DNA of 63,967 bases, filler included, from Reclinomonas americana ATCC 50394 (Eukaryota), in NCBI GenBank assembly GCA_048213135.1. It is 6 parts of 5 records of this genome, joined end to end, with 100 filler letters (N's around TTAATTAATTAA, not from the genome) between each part and the next. Parts side by side here need not be neighbours in the genome. Positions count along the whole stretch, not along the records: positions 39,905 to 48,336 come from PS015437.1; 5 more parts are not named here. One strand, written 5' to 3'. This document shows positions 3,554 to 63,898 of this stretch, one piece after another (position 1 is the stretch's first letter; the number at the start of each line of letters is the position of its first letter). Both the position numbers and the translations under genes were made by a program. Under the pieces are notes generated by a model. That model searched no databases, was not told the origin of the DNA, and saw only the letters and a program-made list of their open reading frames with translations.

Positions 3554-4361
3554 TCACATGTCGTCTGACACGGGTTCCGCTCGCTCCACGTCACCATCCT
3601 CCAGATCATCGGCAGCGACCGCATCGCCCGCCATTCCCTTTTCTACCACCACCACCACACCGCTCATGCGCGTGCCACTGGACGGCTTCCTATCGGCGTG
3701 GAAGCAGCGGCGGCACACGGCGACGTACTTGTCGGCGCCACCAATGACCTCCACCGCACAGTCGCTGACAATGCGCTTGGAGAAGTGCGCGTCCTCGCCA
3801 CACGACATGCACACGGCAGTGAGCTTGACCACTGCCTCGGCCATTGGCAGCAGCTCCAGCACAGCACCGAATGGCTTTTGCTGGAAGGTGCCATCGAGCG
3901 CGGCCACAATCACCGTCTTGCCGAGGTTGGCGGCCTCGTCGCAGAATGACACCAGATCGGGGAAGAACTGACCCTCATCGATGCCAATGCAGTCGTGCGA
4001 GGCCACCAAGTGCGCTGCCTCGCTCAGTCGCTCACACGGGAACGCCGAGTACAGTTGTCTGTTGAGAACAGAGAGCGAGTGTGAGGTTTTCGCGCGCGCG
4101 CATCGTATTCGCATCATGACGTGTCTGCGCAACTGGTCGTGCGTGGCCACGCAGTCGTCTGAGTACCGCACATCGCGCTTGTACTTGAGCACAAGACACT
4201 TGCGACGCGCCAGTGTGTGTCGCTTCACACGTCGCAAGAGCTCAGTCGACTTGCCAGCGAACATCGGGCCCAAGATCAACTGTGTGTGAGCGTGTGAGTG
4301 AGTGCGTGACAAAGAGAGAGTGTGAGAAGTGGCGCGAAACTTCAACACTTCCACGATCCAT
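3554..4361 (-). CDS. TK1: Thymidine kinase (TK1 type), 3 exons
   Basis: MDRGSVE|LILGPMFAGKSTEL (P-loop), IGIDEGQFF, ALDGTF, Zn-binding C-x2-C, IGGADKYVAVCRRCF; intron donors at 4340 (GTTTCG) and 4133 (GTTGCG). Confidence 0.95.
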
Positions 4362-10335: not shown

Positions 10336-10425
10336 TAACACACACACACAAGCGCACACACAAACCATGCTTCATTCTCACTGGCTGCTGCTTGCCTCCG
10401 ACGACNNNNNNNNNNNNNNNNNNNN

Positions 10426-11208
10426 CGCTTGTACGAGGCCCACGGCTGCGGCTCCAGCACAAAAATCCCGCCCGCCGGCAACGACCGCTCCACGCGCGAA
10501 AAGAACGCCAGCAGGCCCTCGTCGCCATAATTCAAATGAATCCACTTGCTCGTGCTAAAGCACGTAATGAGATCATACTGCTCCGTGGGATCGACCGCCT
10601 CCTGCACGACATTCTCATGCCGAAAGCGCACACAGTACGGATACTCGTCGGCCGGTCGCTCGGTCATGAGTTGCGCCACTCGCGAGGCATTCGGTCGCGT
10701 CATGCGACGCAGCGTCAACTGGAACGACAACGGCAGTCGGCTCAACGCCGCCGCCACGTCACTCGCCATGCCCTGCGTCTCCTCGGCGGTGGCAATCTCG
10801 CGCTTGAGCACATTATGCGCGCGCGACACCAGCGACTCGTCAATGTCAATGCCGACGCACAGACGACACTGCAGCTCGCGTGCTGCATGTGCCCTCAGAA
10901 GGTGAGCGCGCGCGTGGGAGGACACAGTGTGACGAGAGCAACGCACCCAGCATGCACGTGACAACGCCCGAGTTGCAGCCAATGTCGAGCATGCGACACC
11001 GTCGCAGTCGCTCGCCCACTGCATCGCGAACAACTTGCACGCGCGGGTCCAGCTCACAGAATCCATCAAACCGATAGTTATAGTAGCCTGTACGTGCCTC
11101 GTTAAGTGACACGCTCAGCTGTTGCACGTGTGAAGCAAAAGGCGCGCACCTGGGTAATTGCCAAAGCGAAACAACAAGTGATTGCTCTTGCTGCGACTTC
11201 TTGTCTCC
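10426..11208 (-). CDS. Bin3/MEPCE-type RNA 5'-phosphate methyltransferase (ends lost in N gaps)
   Basis: FGNYPG|YYNYR, LDIGCNSG (SAM motif I), GIDID, SKWIHLNYGDEGL, GGIFVLEPQPWASYK, all Bin3-family signatures. Confidence 0.9.
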
Positions 11209-11279: not shown

Positions 11280-13261
11280 CTATGGCCGACGAGTGGTAGT
11301 AGGTGTGTCCTCGGCAAAGAAGCTGCTGGGCTTCTCAGCAAACGGCGTCGGCTCGGGGCCCGGATCGTCGGCCAGCGAAAAATCGGTGGACATGCCGACG
11401 CCGGCCGTGGTGGGCGAGAAGAGATGTGCGGCGGCGTCGGCAAGACCGAGTCCTTGCGATGGCACCGTGTTGGTGGTCGGCGAGGCCAGTTCAGCCGTCT
11501 GACGCCGTGCGGCCGCTCGCGTGAGAGTGCCGGGCGACGGACCACTGACCGGCCCTTTCATCGGCTGCGCACGGCCATGTGGACCCGGCACCGCAATGCT
11601 CAGCCCCAACGACGGCGCACCAAGCGCGGACACCAGCGTGTTGGAGCGCTTCACTGGCGGCTGCCCATTGGCAGAGCCGCCACCCATCGGCTCGCCATTG
11701 CGCTTGCCGAGCACACTCTCCGCCAGCATGGACGAGCTGCCGCTGGCCGACGGCGTGTCGCTGCCGGCGCTGCCAGGGAACGACGGCCGCGCAGATTCGG
11801 CGGTGGGCGTCGGCTGTGGCGTAAACGGCGCAAATAGGACATTGGCCAGCACCGCCGCCGCCTCGGCATCGCTGACCGGCTGCTCATACGACGAGGACGA
11901 CGAGGAGGTGGCGCCATACGGCGCCGGCTGCCGACCACCGCTACCGCGCCGTGCATTTGCGCGAGTTGTGCGACGGCCACCCACCGCGTCGCCATCCACG
12001 AGCATCCCATCGTCGAGCGCATGATCGCCATTCACCCGCATGGGGGCGACCGCACCATTCGCAGCACCAGCAGCAGAAGCACCACTACTGCCGCCGCTGA
12101 CGCCGCCGTACCACGGAGCGACGGCGGCACCTGGCGTCTCGGCCGCCGGCATCGCCGCATCCTCATCCTCCTCCTCCTCGTCCTCTTCCTCCTCATCTTC
12201 GTCGTCGTCCTCATCGCTGTCGGACGACGCACGACGTCTCCTCGAGCCCTTACCGGCAGGCTTGCCGCGACCCTTCTTCCCACGCGTGGAGGCACGAGTC
12301 GGGGCCGGACGCGCCGCCGCCGCAGCACTGCCCAACAAGCCCAACGGCATCTGCGGCTGCGGCACCTGCTGTTGCTGCTGCGGTGGCATGGCATACGTGG
12401 CCGGGATCACACCGCCATACGGTGGCGCCCCCGGTGGCGGTGGCGGGTACGCTCCCGGTGGCGGTGGCATCCCGTACATGGCTCCGGGTGGCATACCGAA
12501 CGGCGGCATGCCAGCCGGCGGTGGCGGTGGCATGGGCATTCCACCAGCCAGCTGCACCACAGTTGATGCTGATGAGCACAGAGAGGGACAGAGAGGTAAA
12601 AGAGTGACGGACCTCATTGGGCGCCGGTGCCGCATAATAGTGCGAATTGTGCGCCACAATGCCGGCGCGACGCGACGACAGGTCATCGTAGTCGCCATTG
12701 GTCTTGAACTCGTGATCGCTGACTCGATCGCGCAGCCACTTCTCCATCATTCCGTTCGGATTGCCCGTGGAACAGTACTCAAACAGCCGTCCGCTCTCAT
12801 TGTACACAATCAGCTGCACCTCGGCGTCGCACAAAATCGACAGCTCCATCTGTAAAGAGAAAGAGAGTGTGTATGAGTGACTTTGCGCGCCTTATTTGGG
12901 CCACTGCACGGAAACGCAACAGCCTTTTTCACAAGTCCATCCTGTTATGTGCGTGTGAGGGAAGAGAGAGACAAGAAGAGTGAGTGATATATATACACAT
13001 GCGCGGAAGGTTTGCGCGTTGCTCGGGAGCGGAAAGCGCGCGTGTATAAGAATAGCATATTGCAGACAAAAATGAAAAGATGACAGCCGCACGACAGCAT
13101 CTCTTCTCACTCTCTCTGTACACGCACACTCGCACTCTTCCTCTCTCTCTGTCTCTCGCTCTCTCTTTATACACACTCGCTCATACCTTGCGCTTGCGGA
13201 AAGTTACAGTGCGCGACTTCTCATCGTCGATCCGCTGAATCGTAATCTTCTTGCGTCCCAT
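11280..13261 (-). CDS. MADS-box transcription factor (MEF2/SRF type) with low-complexity C-terminus
   Basis: MGRKKITIQRIDDEKSRTVTFRKRK|DGLVKKA|MELSILCDAEVQLIVYNESGRLFEY; 21-nt middle exon followed by a GTTGCG donor at 12920. Confidence 0.93.
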
Positions 13262-20254: not shown

Positions 20255-20354
20255 NNNNNNNNNNNNNNNNNNNNNNNNNNNNNNNNNNNNNNNNNNNNTT
20301 AATTAATTAANNNNNNNNNNNNNNNNNNNNNNNNNNNNNNNNNNNNNNNNNNNN
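20255..20354. other. Artificial scaffold linker N44-TTAATTAATTAA-N44
   Basis: Six-frame stop 12-mer at 20299-20310 flanked by N runs; the same 12-mer sits in N runs at 39849, 48381, 50588 and 62001. Confidence 0.97.
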
Positions 20355-28639: not shown

Positions 28640-31600
28640 ATGGCCTCGGCGTCCTCGGCGACCAGCACTGCTGCGTACGAGCTGTTTGCTCACACGCATC
28701 GACCGCAACTGGAGAGCATTCAGCTGTTGCGCGCGCATCACACACACACAGTAATCTTCCGATGATGCTCATTCACACATGCATGCATGCACGCACAGGC
28801 CGCAGTCGCTGTGGAGACCGCTGTACGACAAGCTCGTGTTGCAGTTGTTTGACATTGGGCACGCGGTGGCGTTTGATGAGATTGCAGAGGATGATGATGA
28901 GGATGATGAGGGATTGGGGCATCGTGCGGCGATGCGACGCCGTCGCTATCGCGTACTCAGTGCCGTGGAGATGACTCCCGGTGCAGATGTGTTTCTGGTG
29001 CGCGCGCACAAGTCGACTGACACAGACAGTGCTTGCATGCTCACGCGCGTTTGCTGGTAGATTGATCATGCGTGGTCCACGACACCGGAGAAGGCGCGCT
29101 CCGACTTGCGTGCGCATCCGGATCTCGTGCAGCGCCTGATGCGCCTCATGATGCTCGAGGACATTGAGGAGCCGGTGGAGGATGAGGCCGAGTCGCAGCA
29201 GCAGGTGCCGCAGCTGGATGAGCTGCCGGTGGCGTCGAGTGCCGAGGAGTGGCTGAGTGCGTGTGGCAAGTCGTGGGAGACGCTGGTCGATGAGGAGGGG
29301 GCGGTGCTGGAGTGGGACTGGGAGGAGGACTCGGTGGTGTCGCTCAGCGATCAGGTGCTGGTGGAACTCGTGCATGGCATGGAGGCGCATGGAGTCGGTC
29401 GCGAGGCGGTCACTCTGTCGTTCTGGGGCAACACGGCCCTCACCGACGTGGCGCGCATTGCGGATGTGGTGAGTCGCGAGTCTCGCGAATACAGAGCCCC
29501 GACCTCGTTGCTCACTCACTCCACACAGCTGCAATACTTTTCGCATCCGCGCGCCCTGTGGCTGAATCACACGCACGCCGCGTTGCATGCGGGTCTCCGT
29601 GAGCTGGTGTGCGAGAAGCTGCCGTCACTGGAGCTGCTCAACTCCAAGTTCACGCACAAGTTGTGTGGTGCCTCGTTGCCGCGTTCCTCCGCTTCTATAC
29701 CACTGCTCACTAGGTGTGCGCAGTTACACGACGTGGGCCGTGACCTTTGCGAGCGTCGGCGATGCGGTGCAGACAGCCGATCAGGCGGCCACACTGGTGC
29801 ACTTGAAGCTCACGAATCGCGATGTCACTCTTGTTGCGTCTTTTGGTGTTCAAGCGGTGGCGCGCAGGCTGTCTCACAATTACGCGCACAGTGGAAACCG
29901 GAGGTGTTTGCCGAATTCCGCAACGCACGCACGATTGATCTGCGTGGCAACAAGTTGGTGACGGAGGACGGTGCGGCGATGCGACCAGGAGTGTTGGAGG
30001 CACTGCAGGCGTTGCCGGCACTGCGCGATGTGGTGCTCGACGAGGCGACGTACAGGCGCGCCATCGTCTTGGAGGCTCTGGTTGCCGGTTTGCCAAGGTT
30101 GCAAACAATCAACGGCAGCACGCCGACTCCGCAGGTACAGAACTGTGTCAAGCATGTTACTTGGTTTGTTTCCTGGGAGTGACTCACTCTGCTTGTTGCA
30201 CAGCCGCTGTCTGTCTTTGAGCGCAACGTGGATCGTGTGGCTGCACGCATGTGGCACTACAACCACACGTACCAGTATCATGATGGCGAAATGTGGCGCA
30301 GCATCTGGTGTTGCGTCCACAATCATGTCTCTGTTATTGTTGCCAGCGAGCTCACTCGCCTCTGTGTGTGTAGACATCATGGACGAGGTCGGATCCAACA
30401 TGGGCCACAGCGACTCGCCCAACTTCAAGGTGCATCCGTTCCTCTACACCAACACAATGGAGACGTTCTCGGTGGCCTGGCCGATCAAGCCCATCAGTCG
30501 TGCACAGCAAGTGAAGCGAGACTACTATTCTGGTTGCAAGGACGACATGGAACGCATGTGTCGTGCAGTCGGCATGAGCACCGACTGGGAATCGTGGGAT
30601 ATGACGCCGTTTGCCCAGGCCTTGCAGGCCTGGCGAACGCTGCACAGTGAGCCACAGTTGCGTCGACTGGTACGATTCGGTTCACTGGCTTCATTTCTCG
30701 ACTCATATGACACGCGCGGCACAGGCTCGGCAAGCTGCGACGTCACATGGAGGAGCTTAATCTGTGTGCCATCCCGGCAGAGCGTCGATCACGGCCGGTG
30801 CCTGCCGAGGTGTCGGCAGAGGGTTCGGCCGGTCGGCGGTACAAGGTGTTTACGGATGTGTCACAAATCCAGCAGCACCTGAATGACCCCATTTTTGGTG
30901 CGGGCGCCGTGTTGTCGTTTTATTGTGGACGGCCGCTGATCGTTCTTCGTGGGCGCAGAACTCGTACCCGAGTGGGAGCAGGCCGATTTTGTGTGGGTCA
31001 ATTCCGACATTCGTGACTTTGGACAAGTGCTGCAGGGTCAAGTGGTCAACCAGTTCCCGAACGAGCGAGTGCGTGTGCATTCCATGTACTGCACATGTGT
31101 GTGTGTGAGTGTGAGTGTGCGTGACTCATGACTCGTGGTGATGCAGATGTTCACAGTCAAGGATCTGTTGGCGGAGACGGTGCAGTGTGGTCGACCTGGT
31201 GCGCGTTGGCTGCCGACCACGTTCAATCTCGAATACGAGTTGGCCGAAGTACGCGGTGCGCAGGGCAACATTGCGTCACTGCATTCTCTCACTCGACGTT
31301 GCAGTTCATTGGCGACTACTGGGAGCGGTGGTGCAACGGCGGGGACACGCACTACATTGTCAAGTCGTGGAATCTGGCTCGCAGTGCCGAAATGGCGGTG
31401 TCGAACTCGTTGCAGACGGTGGTGCGAATGAAGGAGGCAGGCCCGCGCATTGCGTGCAAGTGTTGCGTCTGCCGCTGTGTCTCCCATGCTTGTCTTGCTC
31501 TTCTGTGCTTAACTCATGGCGGCAGACATCGAGCGTCCGGGCACGCTGTGGGGACGCAAGTTCGACATGCGATGGAATGTGATTCTGCGCAAGGTGGAGC

Positions 31601-32342
31601 CGCTGGAGTTGTACGTGCATCGCGTGTTCTGGCCGCGCTTGGCCAACCAGCAGTTCGCACTCAACTCGTTCGACGAGTACGAGAAGCATTTCACGGTGCA
31701 GAACTATCGCGCGTCGGCCACTGGACTCACCAACATTCTGCCGCCCGAATTCGTACCAACGTACGAGGAGCTGTACCCGGGTCGGCGATGGGCCGATGTG
31801 CAGGTTTGTCTCTCAGCGTATTAATGAGTGGATGGAGAGCGGTGTCTGACGTGACGTGTCGGCGTCGCACAGGAACGCATTCACGCGGTGATTCGCGAGC
31901 TGTTCGAGACGATTGCGGCGTCGGTGCTCGAGGGCAACGACTATTCGGCTGCCTTCTACGGTCTCGATATCATGCTGGACGCCGATGCGAACCCATACGT
32001 CCTCGAAGTCAATTTTGGCGCAGGTGCAGTATCGGTTGTTGCCGCCTTCGTCGTCCGCGCGTGTGTCCTCATCATGCGTGTGTGGTGGTGGTGCAGACAA
32101 TACGCGCGCCTGTCGGTTCTTCCCAGAGTTGCGTTGGCAAGAGAGACGGGTGATATGTCGATAAGTTGAGCAGGAAAACCTGACGTGCGCCTCTGCAGGT
32201 TCTACAACCAGGTGTTCCGGCTCATGTTGCGTTTGTGTGCCACTGGTGTGCTTGTGATTGGTTGGATGCTCACACGTGGTACATGCCAATGCACAGGTAC
32301 TTGGGCGAGCAGAACGACGAGGTGTTTGTGCGACTGGCATAG
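28640..32342 (+). CDS. TTLL12: Tubulin-tyrosine-ligase-like 12 with LRR-like insert, ~16 exons
   Basis: VFL|IDHAWS, W|YIMDEVGS..HSDSPNF, VNQFPNE, WLPTTFNL, IVKSWNLARS, CK|YIERP, KFDMR, YGLDIMLD, LEVNF. Confidence 0.9.
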
Positions 32343-34793: not shown

Positions 34794-37700
34794 TCATGTA
34801 ACCATTCGTCGCAAAGCAACCACGACTGCGCATGAAGCGAGTGAGCCGCTGGACACAAAAGAAAGACGCTGCAGCTGGGCAATGCAGAAGAACACTCACC
34901 CTGCTCCCTCAACAGTGCCGCCAGTGGTCCCAGTGTGGCCAGCACGCCGGTGAAGACGCCAACAATCACCACCGTCATGAATAGACCGGTGGGGAACTCG
35001 AACGTGATGGGTAATTGCGAAAAGAGCGCTCGTTGCAGGGTGGTGGTGACGCCCGTGATGATGCCTGCGGTGGAGTGTTTCTGTGAGACGCATTGCGTGT
35101 ACAACACGGCACCCCAGCGTCCTCCACTCGCTCACCAATGACCACACCCATGATGGATGCCGTAATCACCAGAACAATGGCCTCGTATGTGTACACTCGG
35201 CGCACCACACTGCGACGGGCACCCATGGCGCGCACCAGACCAATCTCCTTGCTCTGCTCGTGGATGTTGGTATCTGCGATAGCCGTACACATCAGCAAGT
35301 ACTCCTATCACATGGTACAGGAGCAGCGCCGCACGCAACACATGCTGGCCAGCAACGAGAAGAAGCACAAGGCCATGGCCACCACTGTGGTGAAGATGGA
35401 AAAGGCCGTCAGCGCCAGCTGCGGACGAAGAGGAAGGTAGGGTGAGACACACGAGTTGAACAAGGCCGTGACTCGCTCCGCCAAAGAAACCAACCTGCAC
35501 TTTGTCGAGGGCGCGCACGTCGCTGGCGATCAACATAGTTAGATGTGCGACGAGTATACAGTAACTGATGGCATCGCGCGCAACTCAAAGTAGTCGCGAA
35601 GCGTGAAGCCTATGCGCCCGTCCACCACGTCGAGCAGTGTCGATTTGACGCTGTCCTTGTCGCTCATGGTGGCCTCGGGTGTCAGTCGGATCATCAGCTC
35701 CCGCAGTCCCAGCTGCAAGCACTCAATAAATACCCTGATCTGCACAGACACACACTGCAACAATCATACGCACATCATCAACGCTACGGATCCAGCCGGC
35801 ACTCATCGCCAGTGTGCTTGGAATGGACACGAGCATGTCCTGGAGAATGCACGCAATATGTGAGTCAATGCTACACGCTGTTATTGCGTTGCCCTTTGCT
35901 GCGCACACACACCTCGAGGAAAAATGTGGGATACTTGCTGAACAGGAAGCGTGGTGTGGCATCCATGAGTGCGGCCGGAGTGAATGGGAGAAAGTACTTT
36001 TGTCGCACACCATCTGCGAGGGCGTTGTCAGTGTTCACCAACGATCATGGCCCTCCGACTCCCAAAGCACTCACCGACGGTCTTTGGTAGCGTGGCGAGG
36101 TAGTAGACAAGTGGCGAGGCGGTCCTGTTCGCACCCAGCAGATCACCGTAGATGCTGCCGATGAGTCCCGACTCTGTGCCAAGGCGTGTCGTGTACATTT
36201 GCTCCGCCAAGCCCTGCACGACATCGTGATCAGTGCGTCAGATTGTGTCGCCATCTTTGAAGAAAGCTAACCAGTGTGGACGGCTGTGCCACGCTGCCGA
36301 TGACCAAGAACTCGTCGAGGAGAACGTCGTACAAATTGGGTGACACGCCACTGCGTTGCCGTGCAGTGAGAAGCAAGGATCACCTGGGACGACGCACACA
36401 GTGCGCGCAACTGAATGGTCTGAAAGTACGCTCGGAAGTTGCCAATGTTGCCAATGGCGGTGTCGTAAATTTCTCTGCTCGAAGTCAGTCGCAACACACA
36501 AGCGCAGCAACATGCAGACATGCACACGCAGCGCAACTCGAAATGATCATCTATTCGATGTGTGACCCACGAGAAATCCTGCACGGCCGGGTGCTTCTCC
36601 AGAGCATCTTCAAACTGGCGCACCAGTTCGGGGTTGTTCTGCAGGCTTCCGAGTTTGATATCCATCTGGCGAAGATCAAGAGACAGATAAGGACAGGCCA
36701 ACTCGCGCGACCGAGAGGTGGCAGTCACAAGGCGCAACCTTGACATGCACCCCGAGCCGTTGCAGCTGCTGGTACGTGGTCGACTGCACTTGCATTCGGA
36801 AGGTCACCGCAATGAAAATGACAAACGCCAGACTCATAGAGTACATCAGTGTAGTCTGCACAGCGTCGACGGTGAGCACAGTTGCGCAACATGACATACT
36901 ATGCAAACAAGCCACCTTGCGATTCCTGTCCTTGTGTGAGACGAGATTCTTGATGACCAGCAGTTTTACGGCGCGGTTGTCCCAAAAGAACAGCACGTGC
37001 GTGATGAAGCGCTCCAGCAGCTTCTCCGCATTGAGGGCTGCGCGTCACCCAGTCAGCTCTCAAACCATCACTCCATCCGCAGCTTCCGAGAACAACAAAC
37101 CTAATAACACGAGGCCAAGTAGCATGCCGAAAAGCAGGTAAAAGAGAATGTTGAGCAGCACCGAAAACTGCTGCGTCAACAGCGCCAGTGGGAACATGTA
37201 GTACGCCAGGAACCTGCGCGCGCGGAAGCATCAGCACAGTGGTCAAAGCACAGCAGTGTGTACCACGCACCCGTACAGCGTCAACATGGAGCCGACAAAC
37301 ACGAGCGACCAGCTAACACCGGCATCGGCGGCACGGTCAATTTCAAACTACGCAACACTGGAGTGGTGAGCGACGCGGCATGTGTGCATCATAGATTTGT
37401 ACTCTCGCGAGGCGCACCACCACAGCCTTGGTTCGCGGTCGCTCCGTGTCCATGGCGTCCTGCAGTCGTGTCGAGAGTGCCTGCTTGGCCGGAAAGATGC
37501 ACGCAAACACTGCCACCAGCGTGGCCAGCAAGGTGGCGCCCACCACTGCATCCGTCGCTAGACCGGAAGGCGGTTCCACACTCACCAACTGCGTCAGCAT
37601 GGACGCCACGCTGCAAAGCAATAGCGGCCAGTGAGCCGGGTGACCGAGCAGCAGGGTGAGCGTGTGACGTGACGATCTGTTGACAAACCCAATCCACGAC

Positions 37701-39678: not shown

Positions 39679-39904
39679 GCGTGGTGGTCGGTCTGTGGGA
39701 GGATCAATCGGCGATCGCAGGACGACGAAGTGAAGACAACTCCGATGCGCGTGACGTTGCGTGCCCCCGTCTCTGCTGCAGTGTGTGTGAGGGAATGCTT
39801 GCAANNNNNNNNNNNNNNNNNNNNNNNNNNNNNNNNNNNNNNNNNNNNTTAATTAATTAANNNNNNNNNNNNNNNNNNNNNNNNNNNNNNNNNNNNNNNN
39901 NNNN

Positions 39905-42883: not shown

Positions 42884-43038
42884 ATACGTAACTTGGTGGG
42901 GCCCGGAACGATCAAGCAGGTTCCGACCGGCTTGGGGCTTGGCCCCAATGCACTATAGGGGTAGCCCCCTGTCTTACCACGCAAGTGGTGGACACCGAAA
43001 TTTTTTATAGGTGGGAGTCGAGTTCGCTCGCCCCGCTC
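42884..43038 (+). ncRNA. U1: U1 spliceosomal snRNA, variant 5' arm (ATACGTAAC)
   Basis: Helix H TTGGTG/CACCGA; SL1 CGGAAC-[GATCAAGCAG]-GTTCCG (U1-70K loop); SL2 CCCC-[AATGCACTATA]-GGGG (U1A loop); SL3 TACCAC-GCAA-GTGGTG; Sm site AAATTTTTTATAG; SL4 CGAG-TTCG-CTCG; ~155 nt. Confidence 0.93.
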
Positions 43039-43138
43039 TCCTCTTGTGGATGATGAAGACGAAGATGTGCGGTGAGGGGAGGGGAGTGTGGAGAGAAGAG
43101 AGGGTGTGCAGCCATGCCGGTCTCTCTTCGTGTTGGAG

Positions 43139-43290
43139 AAAGAGGAGACAGTTGCGTTTCTTTCGACATGGGTGTGGGATCCAGATATCCGTGCTGGTTT
43201 CTCTTCGTTTTGCGTGCCTCTCGTCTTGATCGCAGACCTGGGTAAAGAGGAGAGAGTTACGCTTCTTTCGATGTGGGTGCAATGCCAGAT
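43139..43290 (+). repeat. Imperfect ~47-nt direct repeat pair, 105-nt spacing
   Basis: AAAGAGGAGACAGTTGCGTTTCTTTCGACATGGGTG..CCAGAT (43139) vs AAAGAGGAGAGAGTTACGCTTCTTTCGATGTGGGTG..CCAGAT (43244). Confidence 0.7.
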
Positions 43291-48336: not shown

Positions 48337-48720
48337 NNNNNNNNNNNNNNNNNNNNNNNNNNNNNNNNNNNNNNNNNNNNTTAATTAATTAANNNNNNNN
48401 NNNNNNNNNNNNNNNNNNNNNNNNNNNNNNNNNNNNTGTGTGTGGAGGCGTGAGTGGTGTGCTTCTTCTATTCGCGTACGGTGGTGGTTTTGTGTGTGGG
48501 TGTTTTTTATCCGTCCCGACAGTGGTAAGCATCGGAAGCGCGTACGCGGACCCCGCACGGTATTTTCACATGTAGAGCTCCTTCCCCACACATAGATGCA
48601 CAGAGAGCATTGCACGGCAGAGAGGTACGCACATGCTGTTCATGCCACACATTGCTGACGTCTCTGCTCGTTCTCTCCTCTCCTCTTTGTGTGTTCCGTG
48701 TGTGCGTATTGTGCCGCCAG

Positions 48721-49189: not shown

Positions 49190-50513
49190 ATGAGCGACGT
49201 GAAGACCGCACGTAGTGCCTCTGTGGCCTTTGTCAGTGGTCTGCGCCGGCACGTTCGAGGCGTTGGCGTGCGTCGAGCACTCAAGTTGCATGCACACACG
49301 CACAAAGCCCTCACTCTGTCGGTCTCACCGATCTCCTCGTCGTAGGGCGGCATTTGCTCCGTTCGGCTGCACACGGGTGCGTGTGGACAAGACCAGTGGA
49401 GGCCACTCACGCGGGTGGGCATACGTCTACATGCCGAGTGAGAGTGCACGTGACGCAGCTGTGCGTGCACTGAATGGAGTGTTGCGCATTGATGAGGAAC
49501 GTGAGCGTGAACGAGGTGATGGGGATGGAGGGGAGAGCTCGGCACCAGCAGTGGAGAAGACGCCAGGACCGCCACTGCGTGTGGCGCCTGCGTTCTCCAA
49601 GCTGGACACCTCGTTCCCGGACGTGGACTTTGAGCAGCGTGTGCGACTGCGTGTGGATCGTGAGGGCGAGTACTCGCTCATCGATCAGCACACGGCCGAC
49701 GACATTGCGGAGCTGATGGCGACGCTGATGCGCGCGGCTGGGGCCAGTGCCAGCGAGGCAGTGGACTTTGCTGCGGGCAGTGGCGGCATGTTGGCTGGCC
49801 TGGGTCGCCACTCGTTCTTTGCGCGTGTCACTGGCGTGGAGCTGGAGGCGGAGCGGGGGGCCGACTGTCGCCACAATGTGTGCGATGTGCTCGGCTTGTC
49901 GCATGTCGATGTACGTGCGCCCATGGACTGTAACGATTACCTGGCTGCGCGTCTCGCATCGACCGCGGACGAGGAGCTTCCGTGTTGCATGTTTGCTTCT
50001 CCACCGTGGGGTGGCGGCGAGTATTCTCAGCAGGAAACAATCAGTGATCTTCCGCTCGGCGCCACCACTCTCGTCGAGCTGCTCGTGCACACCTTGTCGC
50101 GTGCGTGCGACCTGGCGGTGCTGCACTTGCCCTTCAATTTCGATCTCGAGTCGCTGGTACGACGAATCACCGCCGCCGACATGGGTCAGCAGCAACAGCA
50201 GCAGCAAGACGCCAGCCTCGACGAACGACCGTCGCCGTTCTGCGTGGAGATGGGCCGTGCTCGTCTCCTGTGCGTGGGCATGGGTCCGGCACAGCGACGA
50301 TCATCGGCGCTCTTTTGCAACGCGCGTCTCGACGCCTGCATGCAAGCGTTGCATCGGTGGGATCAGGAGCGGGCTGGCGAGCATCGCCCGCAGTTCTGGG
50401 ACTGGGAGAAGGAGCGGTGGATCCTCGCGCGACGGTGGCGCGGTTGCACAGGCACGGGCGCCAAGAAGACGTCGACGGTCGCTGTCCCGCCGCCACCAGC
50501 CGTAGACGACTAA
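49190..50513 (+). CDS. RRM + TGS1-like (trimethylguanosine synthase family) SAM methyltransferase
   Basis: RNP2 AFVSGL, RNP1 RGWAYVYM; MTase DREGEYSL, VDFAAGSGG, VTGVEL, HN, MFASPPWGG..Y (TGS1 signature SPPWGG). Confidence 0.75.
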
Positions 50514-50643
50514 TTGATTAGAGCGAAGTAAACAAACCTCTGTNNNNNNNNNNNNNNNNNNNNNNNNNNNNNNNNNNNNNNNNNNNNTTAATTAATTAAN
50601 NNNNNNNNNNNNNNNNNNNNNNNNNNNNNNNNNNNNNNNNNNN

Positions 50644-50850: not shown

Positions 50851-51714
50851 NNNNNNNNNNNNNNNNNNNNNNNNNNNNNNNNNNNNNNNNNNNNNNNNNN
50901 NNNNNNNNNNNNNNNNNNNNNNNNNNNNNNNNNNNNNNNNNNNNNNNNNNNNNNNNNNNNNNNNNNNNNNNNNNNNNNNNNNNNNNNNNNNNNNNNNNNN
51001 NNNNNNNNNNNNNNNNNNNNNNNNNNNNNNNNNNNNNNNNNNNNNNNNNNNNNNNNNNNNNNNNNNNNNNNNNNNNNNNNNNNNNNNNNNNNNNNNNNNN
51101 NNNNNNNNNNNNNNNNNNNNNNNNNNNNNNNNNNNNNNNNNNNNNNNNNNNNNNNNNNNNNNNNNNNNNNNNNNNNNNNNNNNNNNNNNNNNNNNNNNNN
51201 NNNNNNNNNNNNNNNNNNNNNNNNNNNNNNNNNNNNNNNNNNNNNNNNNNNNNNNNNNNNNNNNNNNNNNNNNNNNNNNNNNNNNNNNNNNNNNNNNNNN
51301 NNNNNNNNNNNNNNNNNNNNNNNNNNNNNNNNNNNNNNNNNNNNNNNNNNNNNNNNNNNNNNNNNNNNNNNNNNNNNNNNNNNNNNNNNNNNNNNNNNNN
51401 NNNNNNNNNNNNNNNNNNNNNNNNNNNNNNNNNNNNNNNNNNNNNNNNNNNNNNNNNNNNNNNNNNNNNNNNNNNNNNNNNNNNNNNNNNNNNNNNNNNN
51501 NNNNNNNNNNNNNNNNNNNNNNNNNNNNNNNNNNNNNNNNNNNNNNNNNNNNNNNNNNNNNNNNNNNNNNNNNNNNNNNNNNNNNNNNNNNNNNNNNNNN
51601 NNNNNNNNNNNNNNNNNNNNNNNNNNNNNNNNNNNNNNNNNNNNNNNNNNNNNNNTCTCTCTCTTTCTCCCTCTCGCGCACATGCAAGTGACTTGTCATT
51701 GTGTGTGTGTGCAG

Positions 51715-54700
51715 GCAGCGCCCTCTGTCACGCCAATGATCCGACAGTACCTGGAGATCAAGCGCGAACATCCGGGCTACCTGCTGCTGTACCGCATGGG
51801 CGACTTTTACGAGATGTTCTTTGACGACGCGGTGCGAGCCTCGCAGGCACTCGACATTACAGTTGCGTGCAAAGAGTTGTCTTCTCCCGCGCTCTCCAGT
51901 GGCAAACTCTCTCGCGCACATGCTGCGCAGTTGACCAAGCGAGGTCGACATCAGGGCCTTGACATTCCCATGTGTGGCATCCCGTACCACGCGCTCGACA
52001 ACTACCTGCCGCGCCTCATTCGCAAGGGCATCTTGGTGGCCGTGTGCGAACAGCAGCATGACCATCCGTCATCGCGAGGCAATGCAAGCGGTGGCGAGGG
52101 CGAAGGTGGTGAGCAGCGCTCGCGGCCGCACATTATCCATCGCGCTGTCGAGCGCATCGTCACACCCGGCACTGTCATGGAGGAGAACTTGCTGGATCCG
52201 CGCAACCACAACTACTTGTCGGCCGTGTCGGTCTCCGACGACGGTGCGCTGTATGGCATTGCCAGTGCCGACTTGTCCACCGGTGTGTGTGTGTGTGTGT
52301 GGTCCCACTTGCGCGCGCGTGCGCCTGTCTCTCTGCTCTTACACGTGGTTGCAGGCGAACTGAATGTGCTGGCGTCGTCGCCACTAACGCTGTCGGCGGA
52401 TGTGGCGCGCATGGCACCCTCGGAGGTGTTGATCAGCGATCGGCACGAGGCCGCTGTGCTGCAGGCACTGACAGCATCGCGAGTCGAGGCACACGTAACC
52501 CGTGTGCCTGTCGACGACTTTGTGTTCACCTCGCGTGATTTCACCGCCCTCTGGTCGCGTGCCATGCGCTCCGACAAGGACGCCAGCAAGTCGTCGACGA
52601 CGGCGGGGGTGAATGCAGCGATGAGCAAGCTCGGGCTGTCGCCAGTCGAACGCGCTGCCGTGTGTGCTGTGCTGCGCTACGTGGAACGAACACAAAAGGG
52701 GCGCATACCGTCGTTCAGCGCGCAGCGTGCACGTGTCGACATCACCATGTCCATCGATGCTTCCACGCGCAAGAGCCTCGAACTGACTAGTACACTGTCG
52801 GCGTCGGGCGATCCCAAGAAGGGCAGCATTCTTGGCACCATCGACTACACGGTGACGGCGCCGGGAGCACGACTGCTGGCCTCTCGTCTGAGTTGCGTCG
52901 TTGCAAGGAAAAAACGATTCGTGGTGTTGTGAGAGCTCACTGCAGTGGTGTGTGCGCATGCAAGATGCACCAATCACCGACATTGCGCAGATCAACGAGC
53001 GACTCGATCTCGTTACGTTCTTCATGAAGGAACCGGGAGTTGCCAACAAGGTACCTTGTCGTGCGTCGTCTGTTCATGGAGTGATACTCATGACACGACC
53101 ACAGATCCGCGGCCACTTGCGTGAGTGCTCGGACATTGAACGATGTCTGCAGCGGTTAAGCGTCCGCCGCGGCACACCACGCGATCTGCGTAGTGTCGGA
53201 GATACTTTGGCCCTGGCGCACAAGCTGAAGGCCATCCTGGAGACCTCGCACCGCGCATGGCCACTGCCACCGCTGTGGGACACATCTACGGCGCTCTCCA
53301 ATGCCACCCTGCTGGCACTGTCGCGACGCATCGATGCCGCCATGCTCAATCCGGCCCCCACACAGTTTGCAGAGGAGGGCTTCTTTGCGTACGGCTACAA
53401 TCAGGAACTGGACGCCCTGAAGCGCACACGCTCCAACGGCGAGCACGAGATGTCTCGACTGCAGGAGCAATATCGGCAGAAAACTGGTGCGTTCGCCGTG
53501 CTGCACAGCGAGCGTGCGTGTTTGTGCAGTGATTCTCACTGTTGTCGCGGATACAAAGGCGTGTCCAATCTGAAGATCCGCTTCAATCACGTGGTCGGCT
53601 ACTTTTGCGAGGTGTCGCCGTCGCAGGAACACAAGCTGGTCGAGTGCACCGAGGAGCAGTTCACTCTGTGCCAGTCCGTGTCGGGCTCGCGACGCTACAA
53701 GACCGAGGTGATCGAGTTGATCGAGTGGCTGACCTTTGTGTTTTCTCTCACCACTGACTGTGCGCGTGTCGAATGACAGGCCCTGCGTCACAAGGAGGAA
53801 CAGATTCATCGAGCCAAGCACGAGACTTTTGATCTGGAAATGCGTCTCTTTTACGAGCTGTGCGACGAGGTGCGTCCACCTGGTGCAATACATCGGTGCA
53901 CGCCACTTAACATCGTGCGCAGGTGGTGGCTGCGTCGTCGGACGTGCGTGCCGTGTGCAACAGTCTCTCGGTGATTGATGTCTCGTGTGCGCTGGCCAAG
54001 GTGTGTGCGAGAGATAGAGAGAGAGAGAGAGAAGTGAGAAGTGTGCTCTGGTATGCGCAAGCTCCATCCACCTGCGCACGAGTTGTCTATGTGGCATGAC
54101 CATTGTGGAAAGCATACGCTCATTCACTTTACTTCATTTGTATCGCAGCTGGCCACTGATCACAACTACTGCCGACCGGAAGTCAACGACGGGTGAGTTG
54201 TCTGCGATGTGGGTGTTTTTTCGGAAAGCAGTTGTTCATGGTCGCACGCTGTACAGTGTGGAATTCGTCGTGGAGGGCGGTCGCCATGCGGTTGTTGAGC
54301 GCAGTCGTGAGGGTCGGTTTGTGCCGAACGACTGCGCCATCGATAGCAACAGCATTGTGCACTTGATTACCGGGTGCGCTGAGACTGTATGTTGCTCTTG
54401 TTTTCTTGTTCTCACGAACTGTGACTCCCCTCTGTAGGCCGAATATGGGCGGCAAGAGCACGTATCTGCGACAAAACGCCATTATTGCCATTCTGGCACA
54501 GATGGGATCGTACGTGCCGGCAACGCGTGCACGTCTTGGTGTGGTCGACAGGCTGTTTTCCAGGGTACGCATGCTGCGGCGTACTTTGTACCCGAGGTGG
54601 TGTCATTCCCCAATGTGCGGCGGTTGTGTTGCAGGTGGGCGCCTCTGACGACCTCGCTCGCGATCAGTCCACATTCATGGTGGAGATGACGGAGACGTCG

Positions 54701-55525
54701 TTGATTCTGCATCAGGCAACTCCACGCTCACTGGTGTAGTGTTGTCGCCCGTCATGAGTGTGCTGAAGACGTGGGTGACATTAGTTGATTCACCGTCGTC
54801 GACGCAGATTATCATGGACGAAATCGGGCGTGGCACCTCGACGTACGACGGCATGGCGCTCGCCTGGGCCATTCTCGAACACATTCACGACATGAACTGG
54901 TACGTGGGGCATGCATATTTCGCGACCCTGTCTCTGTGCCTCACCGATGTGGATCGTAGTTCACGAACGCTGTTTGCCACTCACTACCACGAGTTGGCGG
55001 CCTTGTGCAAAGAGCAGCGGAAAATCGTGCCGTACACACTGGAGATCATCGAAGATGTGCGTTCACTGCTGACATGCTTCTCTGCCACAGTCCATCTTGT
55101 CAGTCTCACTCGTCGTCGTCAAGGGCGACGATCTCATCTTTGCACATCGAGTGATTCCCGGCACGGCACGCCGTTCGTACGGCATCCATGTGGCCGAGTT
55201 GGCCGGCATTCCGCCTGCCGTGGTGATTCGTGCCAACGAAGTGCTGCGACTCATTGAGTCGCGCAGCCCGAGCGCGTCGCTGACCAACGCAACACCGCCG
55301 GTCACACTACCACCGCCACCACCACCGCCACCGCCATCGCCACCACCAGTGGTTGTGCCAGAAGACCCGTCGGTGGCGCTGAATGCCAAGATCGCCGACA
55401 TGGTGCGGCGGCTCGACCCAGATGCGCTGTCACCGCGGGAGGCGATGGTGAAGCTGTTTGAGTTGCACGCTCTTGCTGGAGATGCTGAGGCGAAGCGGGG
55501 ACGTCGAAGAGGAGGAACAACATGA
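51715..55525 (+). CDS. MutS1/MSH1-like (bacterial-type, probably mitochondrial) mismatch repair ATPase, ~15 exons
   Basis: [88 protein letters not shown]. Confidence 0.93.
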
Positions 55526-61815: not shown

Positions 61816-62163
61816 CTGCGTGCACACATGAATGAGAGAAAGATTTGAGTGTGTGAGAGAGAGAGCAACACACATTCTTTGTCTCCTTTTTCTCCGCGTC
61901 TTCCGTCCTTGTTCTCTCCTCTCTCTTTTGCTCTCTCTCTCTCTCTCACTGGGGGGNNNNNNNNNNNNNNNNNNNNNNNNNNNNNNNNNNNNNNNNNNNN
62001 TTAATTAATTAANNNNNNNNNNNNNNNNNNNNNNNNNNNNNNNNNNNNNNNNNNNNCCATCGTCCTCGCGAACTGTACTCTTCTCGGCTTCATTACGTAC
62101 TGAAAGGGGAGAGAATGGGAAAAAACACACACACACAGACATATGCACATGCACAAGAGCGCG

Positions 62164-63898
<1,735 letters not shown>

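Follow-up and report, generated by a model that had tools for sequence, protein, structure and literature searches.

A window of 63,967 nt from the draft genome of Reclinomonas americana ATCC 50394 (GenBank assembly GCA_048213135.1), the whole stretch of DNA analyzed here, contains a full-length homologue of the U1 small nuclear RNA (snRNA) at positions 42884-43037 (+). Its 5' arm departs from the consensus at three positions, and the changed arm fits, better than the canonical arm does, a discrete class of splice donors, W/GUUGCGU, found at seven mapped introns of the same window (a slash marks the exon-intron boundary throughout). The match between arm and donors is real and specific. We see an even chance that the gene encodes a functional U1 isoform which reads W/GUUGCGU in a shifted register built into its arm, while a main U1 with C8 reads G/GUGCGY. 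The stronger notion of an isoform dedicated to GTTGCG introns goes further than the evidence and is offered as a hypothesis.

The U1 gene and its 5' arm

When the window was searched with the Rfam covariance model of U1 (RF00003), the match covered 42884-43037 (+) from model position 1 to 166, with a score of 64 bits, where the gathering score is 69.5, and an E-value of 1.2e-15 in a search of 501 bases and 1.5e-13 over the whole 64-kb window. This was the sole Rfam match up to E 0.1 in the whole window, which gives one U1 in 64 kb, and cmscan at the Rfam gathering thresholds reported no match anywhere in the window. Part of the score is lost to the three changes in the arm. The first-pass annotation, made from the sequence alone, had called this element a variant U1; the E-value and the full-model coverage bear this out, while the score stays below the gathering score. 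We rejected an assignment to U11, since RF00003 was the best clan member in cmscan and the mapped introns are GT-AG introns with GTTGCG or GTGCG donors.

The cloverleaf implied by the covariance model has helix H and stem-loops 1 to 4 in U1 order, with 38 of 38 standard pairs and a free energy of -48.6 kcal/mol. The structural hallmarks listed in the first-pass annotation (helix H, the four stem-loops, their loops, and the UUCG cap) were accurately described, as were the three arm changes, which are seen both in the sequence and in the alignment to the model. The unconstrained minimum-free-energy structure of the gene is a different and more stable fold (-67 kcal/mol, z -2.95), and the argument for U1 therefore rests on the family-model match and not on the fold alone. 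Taken together, the full-model match, the 38 intact pairs, the tetraloops, and the conserved loops of stem-loops 1 and 2 are unlike random decay. The parts of the gene are as follows.

42884..43038 (+): U1 snRNA gene, beginning ATACGTAACTTGG; RF00003 covariance-model match at 42884-43037
42884..42894 (+): 5' arm AUACGUAACUU, with U5G, C8A, and G11U against the Rfam consensus; from the sequence and the covariance-model alignment
42895..42898 (+): helix H, 5' strand GGUG, with its partner CACC at 42993-42996; 4 of 4 standard pairs
42899..42933 (+): stem-loop 1, with a 10-nt loop, GAUCAAGCAG, at 42910-42919; 10 standard pairs
42934..42968 (+): stem-loop 2, with the loop AAUGCACUAUA at 42947-42957; 10 standard pairs, from the covariance-model alignment
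42974..42991 (+): stem-loop 3, with a GCAA tetraloop; 7 standard pairs
42997..43010 (+): Sm-site region GAAAUUUUUUAUAG, aligned to the Sm region of the model, AUAAUUUgUGgUAG
43013..43033 (+): stem-loop 4, with a UUCG tetraloop; 7 standard pairs

The arm differs from the consensus AUACUUACCUG at three of its 11 positions, with G at position 5, A at position 8, and U at position 11. The loop of stem-loop 1 agrees with the model consensus GAUCAaGAAG at nine of ten positions and is of the U1-70K type, this loop being the U1-70K site of known U1s. Stem-loop 2 carries AAUGCAC in its loop, which departs at the second position from AUUGCAC, the U1A site of known U1s. Between stem-loops 3 and 4, at the place expected for the Sm site, lies AAAUUUUUUAUAGG, where an A takes the place of the G after the U run; over the aligned Sm region both consensus G positions are replaced, by U and A. 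The Sm consensus is PuAU4-6GPu (PMC2396436).

Scans for similar sequences returned chance matches. A metagenome scan with the pattern ATACGTAACTTGG..GATCAAG found one locus, in bacterial-like coding DNA and with no Rfam match. A scan of prokaryote genomes with a 20-mer from stem-loop 1 likewise gave one, in a metagenome-assembled genome and again without an Rfam match.

GTTGCG donors and their pairing with the arm

The hexamer GTTGCG occurs 107 times in the window, 50 times on the + strand and 57 times on the - strand, against a dinucleotide expectation of 67.7 for both strands (1.58-fold, which ranks it 468th of 4054 hexamers). As the raw count is only modestly above expectation, introns were mapped by homology instead. 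Three genes, encoding a MutS-type protein, a TTLL12-like protein, and a protein kinase, were picked without regard to the motif, and in these GTTGCG starts 5 of 22 mapped introns, about a quarter. A MADS-box gene and a thymidine kinase gene were examined because the motif was present, and they stand outside this count. Across the five genes, sense-strand GTTGCG was the best-scoring donor at seven of eight sites; at the eighth (30657), which would give a frame-compatible 68-nt intron, homology could not resolve the boundary. GTTGCG splice donors thus exist, as the first-pass annotation had claimed, while its description of the class as abundant in the window was overstated, given the share of 5 in 22 introns and the modest enrichment of the hexamer. 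Most of the other mapped donors are G/GTGCGY or GTACGY. The seven mapped GTTGCG donors are listed here with their evidence.

51862..51868 (+): MutS-type gene, donor aca/GTTGCGT of a 69-nt in-frame intron; best junction, 171.0 bits
52892..52898 (+): MutS-type gene, donor tga/GTTGCGT of a 73-nt intron; 77.9 bits versus 73.5 for the next junction
30310..30316 (+): TTLL12-like gene, donor ggt/GTTGCGT of a 64-nt intron; 98.9 bits versus 92.3 for the next junction
31462..31468 (+): TTLL12-like gene, donor agt/GTTGCGT of a 64-nt intron; 112.5 bits versus 109.8 for the next junction, which has a GC donor
63467..63473 (-): kinase gene, donor ttt/GTTGCGT splitting HRDL/KPGNLL; three-frame display read by eye, with Pfam Pkinase pieces
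12914..12920 (-): MADS-box gene, donor gct/GTTGCGT splitting GLVKKA/MELSILCD; three-frame display, with SRF-TF positions 24-48 in the downstream exon
4127..4133 (-): thymidine kinase gene, donor cca/GTTGCGC of a 75-nt in-frame intron; best junction, 170.1 bits

For the MutS-type gene, 120 full-length homologues were fetched, a profile was built from 40 of them, and the exon pieces were located; at each boundary every in-frame GT/GC...AG option was then scored against the profile. The gene has 12 introns of 53 to 148 nt, three of them stop-free and in frame. GTTGCG stands at two of the 12 donors (51862 and 52892) and GTGCGT at three, and GTGCGC, GTACGC, GTACGT, GTGATC, GTGTGT, GTGAGT, and GTGTAG occur once each. 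Removing the intron at 51862 yields ALDIT/LTKRG, to be compared with aldialtkrG in the profile consensus, and at the 52892 intron the high-scoring segment pairs of tblastn meet at query residue 331.

The profile for the TTLL12-like gene came from 13 weak homologues (best E 2.3e-12), and it resolved six of nine boundaries; the three ambiguous ones include that at 30657. The six resolved donors are GTTGCG twice (30310 and 31462), GTGCGG, GTGCGT, GTACGC, and GTTTGT. In the kinase gene, where conserved motifs were read by eye, the donors are GTGCGT, GTTGCG, and GTTCGT, together with a fourth, GTGCGT at 63048, based on the end of an open reading frame (ORF) only, and GTTGCG accounts for one of the four. 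In the thymidine kinase gene, intron removal restores ATHDQQLYSAFPC at profile length.

The +3 position is U in 7 of the 22 introns. Besides GTTGCG, such donors are GTTTGT at 31804 (+) in the TTLL12-like gene, which is of the Entamoeba type, and GTTCGT at 63258 (-) in the kinase gene. Stop-free in-frame introns lie at 51862-51930, 53487-53558, and 54900-54959 (+) and at 4059-4133 (-), and these four hidden introns would appear as insertions of 20 to 25 residues if the genes were called from ORFs. A mobile introner was also considered as the source of the GTTGCG introns and rejected: three of them, the two of the MutS-type gene and that of the thymidine kinase gene, were compared by eye and are alike only in the donor.

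Each of 23 mapped donors, from -4 to +10, was folded with three arms (the thymidine kinase donor was left out): that of this gene, the canonical arm, and ACGUACC, which was built from the Mastigamoeba hexamer of a preprint discussed below. On the six GTTGCG donors the arm of this gene gave -8.3 to -10.4 kcal/mol and was the best of the three in all six cases, whereas the canonical arm gave -1.5 to -3.7 kcal/mol. On the 17 other donors it gave mostly about -4 kcal/mol (range of -2.3 to -8.2, the -8.2 being an exception at 31069) and was best for none. ACGUACC was better than the canonical arm for 14 of these 17, and on donors with +4C this C8 arm reached -6.0 to -12.3 kcal/mol. The arm of this gene thus outperforms the other two on 6 of 6 GTTGCG donors and on 0 of 17 others; it is not the complement of the genome's predominant donor, and only its U5G position suits the majority donors.

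The pairs in the folded duplexes are C9:+1G, A8:+2U, A7:+3U, U6.+4G, G5:+5C, C4:+6G, and A3:+7U. Six of the seven mapped GTTGCG donors have U at +7, which fits pairing with A3 in the shifted register. This register had been proposed from the sequence at the outset, and it stood from C9:+1G to A3:+7U; the further pair proposed, U10:-1A, is not general, with A at -1 in three of the seven. G is found at -1 in none of the seven GTTGCG donors versus 13 of 17 others. Because aligning the donors on their UGCGU core places this -1G of the other donors where the GTTGCG class has +1G, a G faces C9 in both. Next to the C9-facing G, the majority class has a G, which would call for C8, and the GTTGCG class a U, which fits A8. 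Over all 106 GTTGCG sites with clean context, the -1 base is T in 48%, A in 28%, C in 15%, and G in 8%.

As a rough null, we asked how many arms with up to three substitutions from the canonical one equal the observed arm in binding to the six donors: 27 of 4983 do, and so do 2 of the 33 single substitutions of ACGUACC, figures that are not clean probabilities, the fit having been spotted before the test was made. An arm-donor match of this kind is unlikely to have arisen by drift.

A 41-nt repeat occurs twice downstream of the U1 gene, at 43134-43174 and 43239-43279 (+); the copies are 105 nt apart, and the first starts some 100 nt from the gene. In each copy is an arm-complementary heptamer, GAGACA/GTTGCGT in one and GAGAGA/GTTACGC in the other, the latter built on GTTACG, the Watson-Crick complement of arm nucleotides 4-9. 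They may be donors of a repetitive neighboring gene, or a coincidence.

One U1 arm or two

In the mechanism we propose, arm nucleotides 3-9 (ACGUAAC) would pair with intron positions +7 to +1, with a single G.U wobble at +4, and +1G would be faced by C9 rather than C8, with A8 facing +2U. The majority donors (G/GUGCGY and GUACGY) have the same UGCGU/ACGU core one position nearer the cleavage site, and a C8 arm (ACGUACC) would be their best match. From this position of the core we infer that the genome most likely has two or more U1 isoforms, of which this gene encodes one, and which would be expressed, assembled into a small nuclear ribonucleoprotein (snRNP), and divide the donors between them. 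This isoform would serve the GUUGCG class, about a quarter of the mapped introns, and in steps after U1 binding the GU dinucleotide would decide where cleavage falls, as in known shifted-register sites. In the normal register, a canonical U6 could not pair with +4 to +6 of GUUGCG.

Several observations weigh against two specialized arms. No second U1 was found in the 64-kb window with RF00003 up to E 0.1, and the one that was found scores 5.5 bits short of the Rfam gathering score and has an Sm region without the consensus G (AAUUUUUUAUAG). The -1 base is T in four of the seven mapped GTTGCG donors and A in three, and T is left unpaired by U10. The null figures given above carry the reservation stated with them. 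GTTACG, which complements the arm exactly, shows no enrichment in the window (13 observed, 13.0 expected), and a sense GTTACGT at 53012 (+), a perfect 7-nt complement of the arm within a MutS exon (LDLVTF), is no donor in the homology model. With the exact complement unenriched and the wobble form preferred, something besides the arm must also select +4G. Finally, ACGUACC, presumably by bulging out a U, binds the GTTGCG donors with -4.4 to -8.6 kcal/mol; since an arm of this type also reaches them, a dedicated isoform is not strictly needed.

The strongest alternative, to which we give about half the weight of the two-arm reading, is that this gene is the sole or main U1 and serves every intron. 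Its ACGUA core (nucleotides 3-7) would then sit on UGCGU in both classes, the mismatch of +1G with A8 would be tolerated, and the cut would fall at the first GU. It is the only U1 within the window, and ACGUA complements +2 to +6 of GUGCGU just as it complements +3 to +7 of GUUGCGU. U5G suits the +4C present in 11 of the 17 non-GTTGCG donors, and C9 faces a G in both classes (-1G in 13 of 17; +1G in 7 of 7). A single clear U1 candidate is described for Mastigamoeba and for each Entamoeba species in the portion of the preprint available to us (bioRxiv 10.1101/2022.06.08.495308). However, such a U1 would form weak duplexes with the majority donors (about -4 kcal/mol in most cases), compared with the values down to -12.3 kcal/mol that a C8 arm reaches where +4 is C. 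It is also hard to explain by selection an only U1 that is tuned to a minority of introns and mismatches the invariant +1G of most. To our knowledge, C8 of U1 is otherwise nearly invariant.

We think it unlikely, though less so than an assembly error, that the gene is a silent paralogue, or is expressed without a role at 5' splice sites, as a pseudogene or drifting variant of the kind seen at many human variant U1 loci, while a main U1 reads the GTTGCG donors through a bulged U. Such a gene might well score under the Rfam gathering score, with an Sm region off PuAU4-6GPu and AAUGCAC rather than AUUGCAC in the loop of stem-loop 2. The energies of ACGUACC on GTTGCG donors and the lack of enrichment of GTTACG would also fit, and bulged registers are documented in human cells according to the part of the literature consulted (PMC4856993). 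Against this, all 38 stem pairs are standard and the tetraloops stable, and the changes are confined to the 11-nt arm, which ranks within the best 0.5% of near-canonical arms at binding this donor class. Moreover, a bulge on an arm with C8 and C9 should favor -1G, yet none of the seven mapped donors and only 8% of the 106 sites have it. Errors of assembly or sequencing that hide a conventional arm are a very improbable source of the three arm differences: the scaffold is a draft with 25 N runs totaling 5078 bases, but three separate substitutions would have had to fall within 11 bases with no N run or homopolymer nearby, U5G was independently reported in another amoeba, Mastigamoeba, in the same preprint as far as its accessible text goes (bioRxiv 10.1101/2022.06.08.495308), and the resulting arm fits a real donor class.

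Genomic setting and relation to known systems

The window is draft eukaryotic DNA with about 58% G+C and 25 N runs. Pfam searches of its ORFs identified a thymidine kinase, a Bin3/MePCE methyltransferase, a MADS-box protein, a ferric reductase/NOX protein, a USP-type hydrolase, a TTLL12-like ligase, a cap guanine-N2 methyltransferase, a bacterial-type MutS, and a protein kinase. The bacterial-type MutS gene, at 51712-55477 (+), has about 40% identity to alphaproteobacterial MutS and 37% to a Willaertia protein, and it carries roughly one intron per 300 nt; its homologues, at 41% identity or less, are taxonomically scattered. Homologues of the thymidine kinase show 59% identity or less and come from scattered protists. 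An FtsX-like permease domain, of a bacterial-type family, lies at 34978-35304 (-) among intron-bearing eukaryotic genes and, with the MutS-type gene, gives a hint that some genes of this genome came from bacteria.

Two genes for small-RNA cap enzymes, a Tgs1-like cap guanine-N2 methyltransferase at 49203-50510 (+) and the Bin3/MePCE-type enzyme at 10425-11114 (-), share the 64 kb with the U1 gene, which is probably a coincidence. Beside larger N runs there are five pairs of 44-N runs around 12 bases (20255-20354, 39805-39904, 48337-48436, 50544-50643, and 61957-62056), and these look like a scaffolding or masking artifact and not biology.

The closest precedents come from the preprint of Roy and Bowser (bioRxiv 10.1101/2022.06.08.495308), which we cite from the parts available to us. 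It reports one U1 per Entamoeba species, with the arm AACAAAC matched to GUUUGUU donors, and a U1 candidate of Mastigamoeba balamuthi with the arm ACGUAC, in a genome preferring GUGCGC donors. A standard and a modified (ACAUAC) U1 of Physarum are mentioned there as unpublished. The canonical arm is said to be kept in Thecamonas, Micromonas, and 69 yeasts, with Giardia and Trichomonas cited likewise.

Like the M. balamuthi U1 as presented in those parts, the gene described here has U5G facing +4C (GUGCGC there; GUGCGY or GUACGY in 11 of 17 non-GTTGCG donors here) and a G.U wobble opposite U6, and U5G and its fit to +4C are thus not new in kind. Both genomes are GC rich and intron rich (60.7% GC in M. 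balamuthi [PMC8136499] and about 58% in the window), although the intron density of the MutS-type gene, with 12 introns, is higher than the average of 3.4 per gene in M. balamuthi (PMC8136499). In contrast to the M. balamuthi arm, which has C8 and the normal register and for which the text we could consult reports no extended pairing, the arm here has A8, is shifted by one, and reaches +7. Like the Entamoeba arms, it is rewritten to match an atypical GUU... donor out to +7, where pairing in Entamoeba is fully Watson-Crick. Unlike in Entamoeba, which by the same account has a near-universal donor, a single U1, and C8:+1G, the matching donors here are a minority beside conventional ones, and C8 itself is changed.

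A shifted register has been proven for human U1, with the canonical arm and at a subset of sites (Roca and Krainer 2009, as summarized in PMC4856993, available to us in part). As at those sites, the pairs here would be moved by one, with +1G facing C9 and cleavage not fixed by the U1 helix. In the human case, on that summary, the canonical arm leaves +2U mismatched with C8, whereas A8 here would pair the shifted register fully. Several arms per genome, with a proposed role at non-consensus donors, are likewise known from human variant U1s (PMC3561869 and PMC10870369) and the Physarum pair, but the portions of the human studies that we consulted do not link any variant arm to a defined and abundant class of donors. 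In its proposed second snRNA reading 5' splice sites of its own intron class, the arrangement would resemble U11 and the minor spliceosome; unlike that system, the introns are GT-AG, 64 to 91 nt long, with ordinary CAG or AAG acceptors and no ATATCCTT-type donor. A 2025 tunicate preprint found identical U1 arms in Fritillaria despite massive donor change and argues that the divergence of duplicated U1 genes is strongly constrained.

Our literature search found no U1 with A at position 8, no fully paired arm in a shifted register, and no GUUGCG donor class. The suggestion of the first-pass annotation that this is not a described system therefore holds, within that search, for the shifted-register A8 arm and not for arms that have co-evolved with their donors (Entamoeba) or for U5G (Mastigamoeba), both present in the available part of the earlier preprint (bioRxiv 10.1101/2022.06.08.495308).

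Few RNA sequences of eukaryotes are as conserved as the 5' arm of U1, and lineages with transformed donors have mostly left it unchanged. The documented co-evolved arms that we found are confined to Archamoebae and to one preprint, and in its accessible parts positions 5 and 6 are changed and the register is kept (bioRxiv 10.1101/2022.06.08.495308). It is a little short of an even prospect that R. americana has either two major-spliceosome U1 snRNPs in one nucleus, with C8 or A8 arms that both clamp the UGCGU core, one with the cut after the C9-facing G (G/GUGCGU) and the other with the cut before it (/GUUGCGU), or, if there is no C8 copy, an only U1 without the C that usually sits opposite the invariant +1G. 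If the two-arm form is true, a single base of U1 would separate two classes of introns, cut at sites that differ by one nucleotide when measured from the U1 helix. The A8 arm facing the GUUGCGU class would be a natural counterpart of suppressor-U1 experiments, and it would open tests of how the cleavage site is chosen after U1 binding and of whether U1 genes can duplicate and specialize for subsets of introns.

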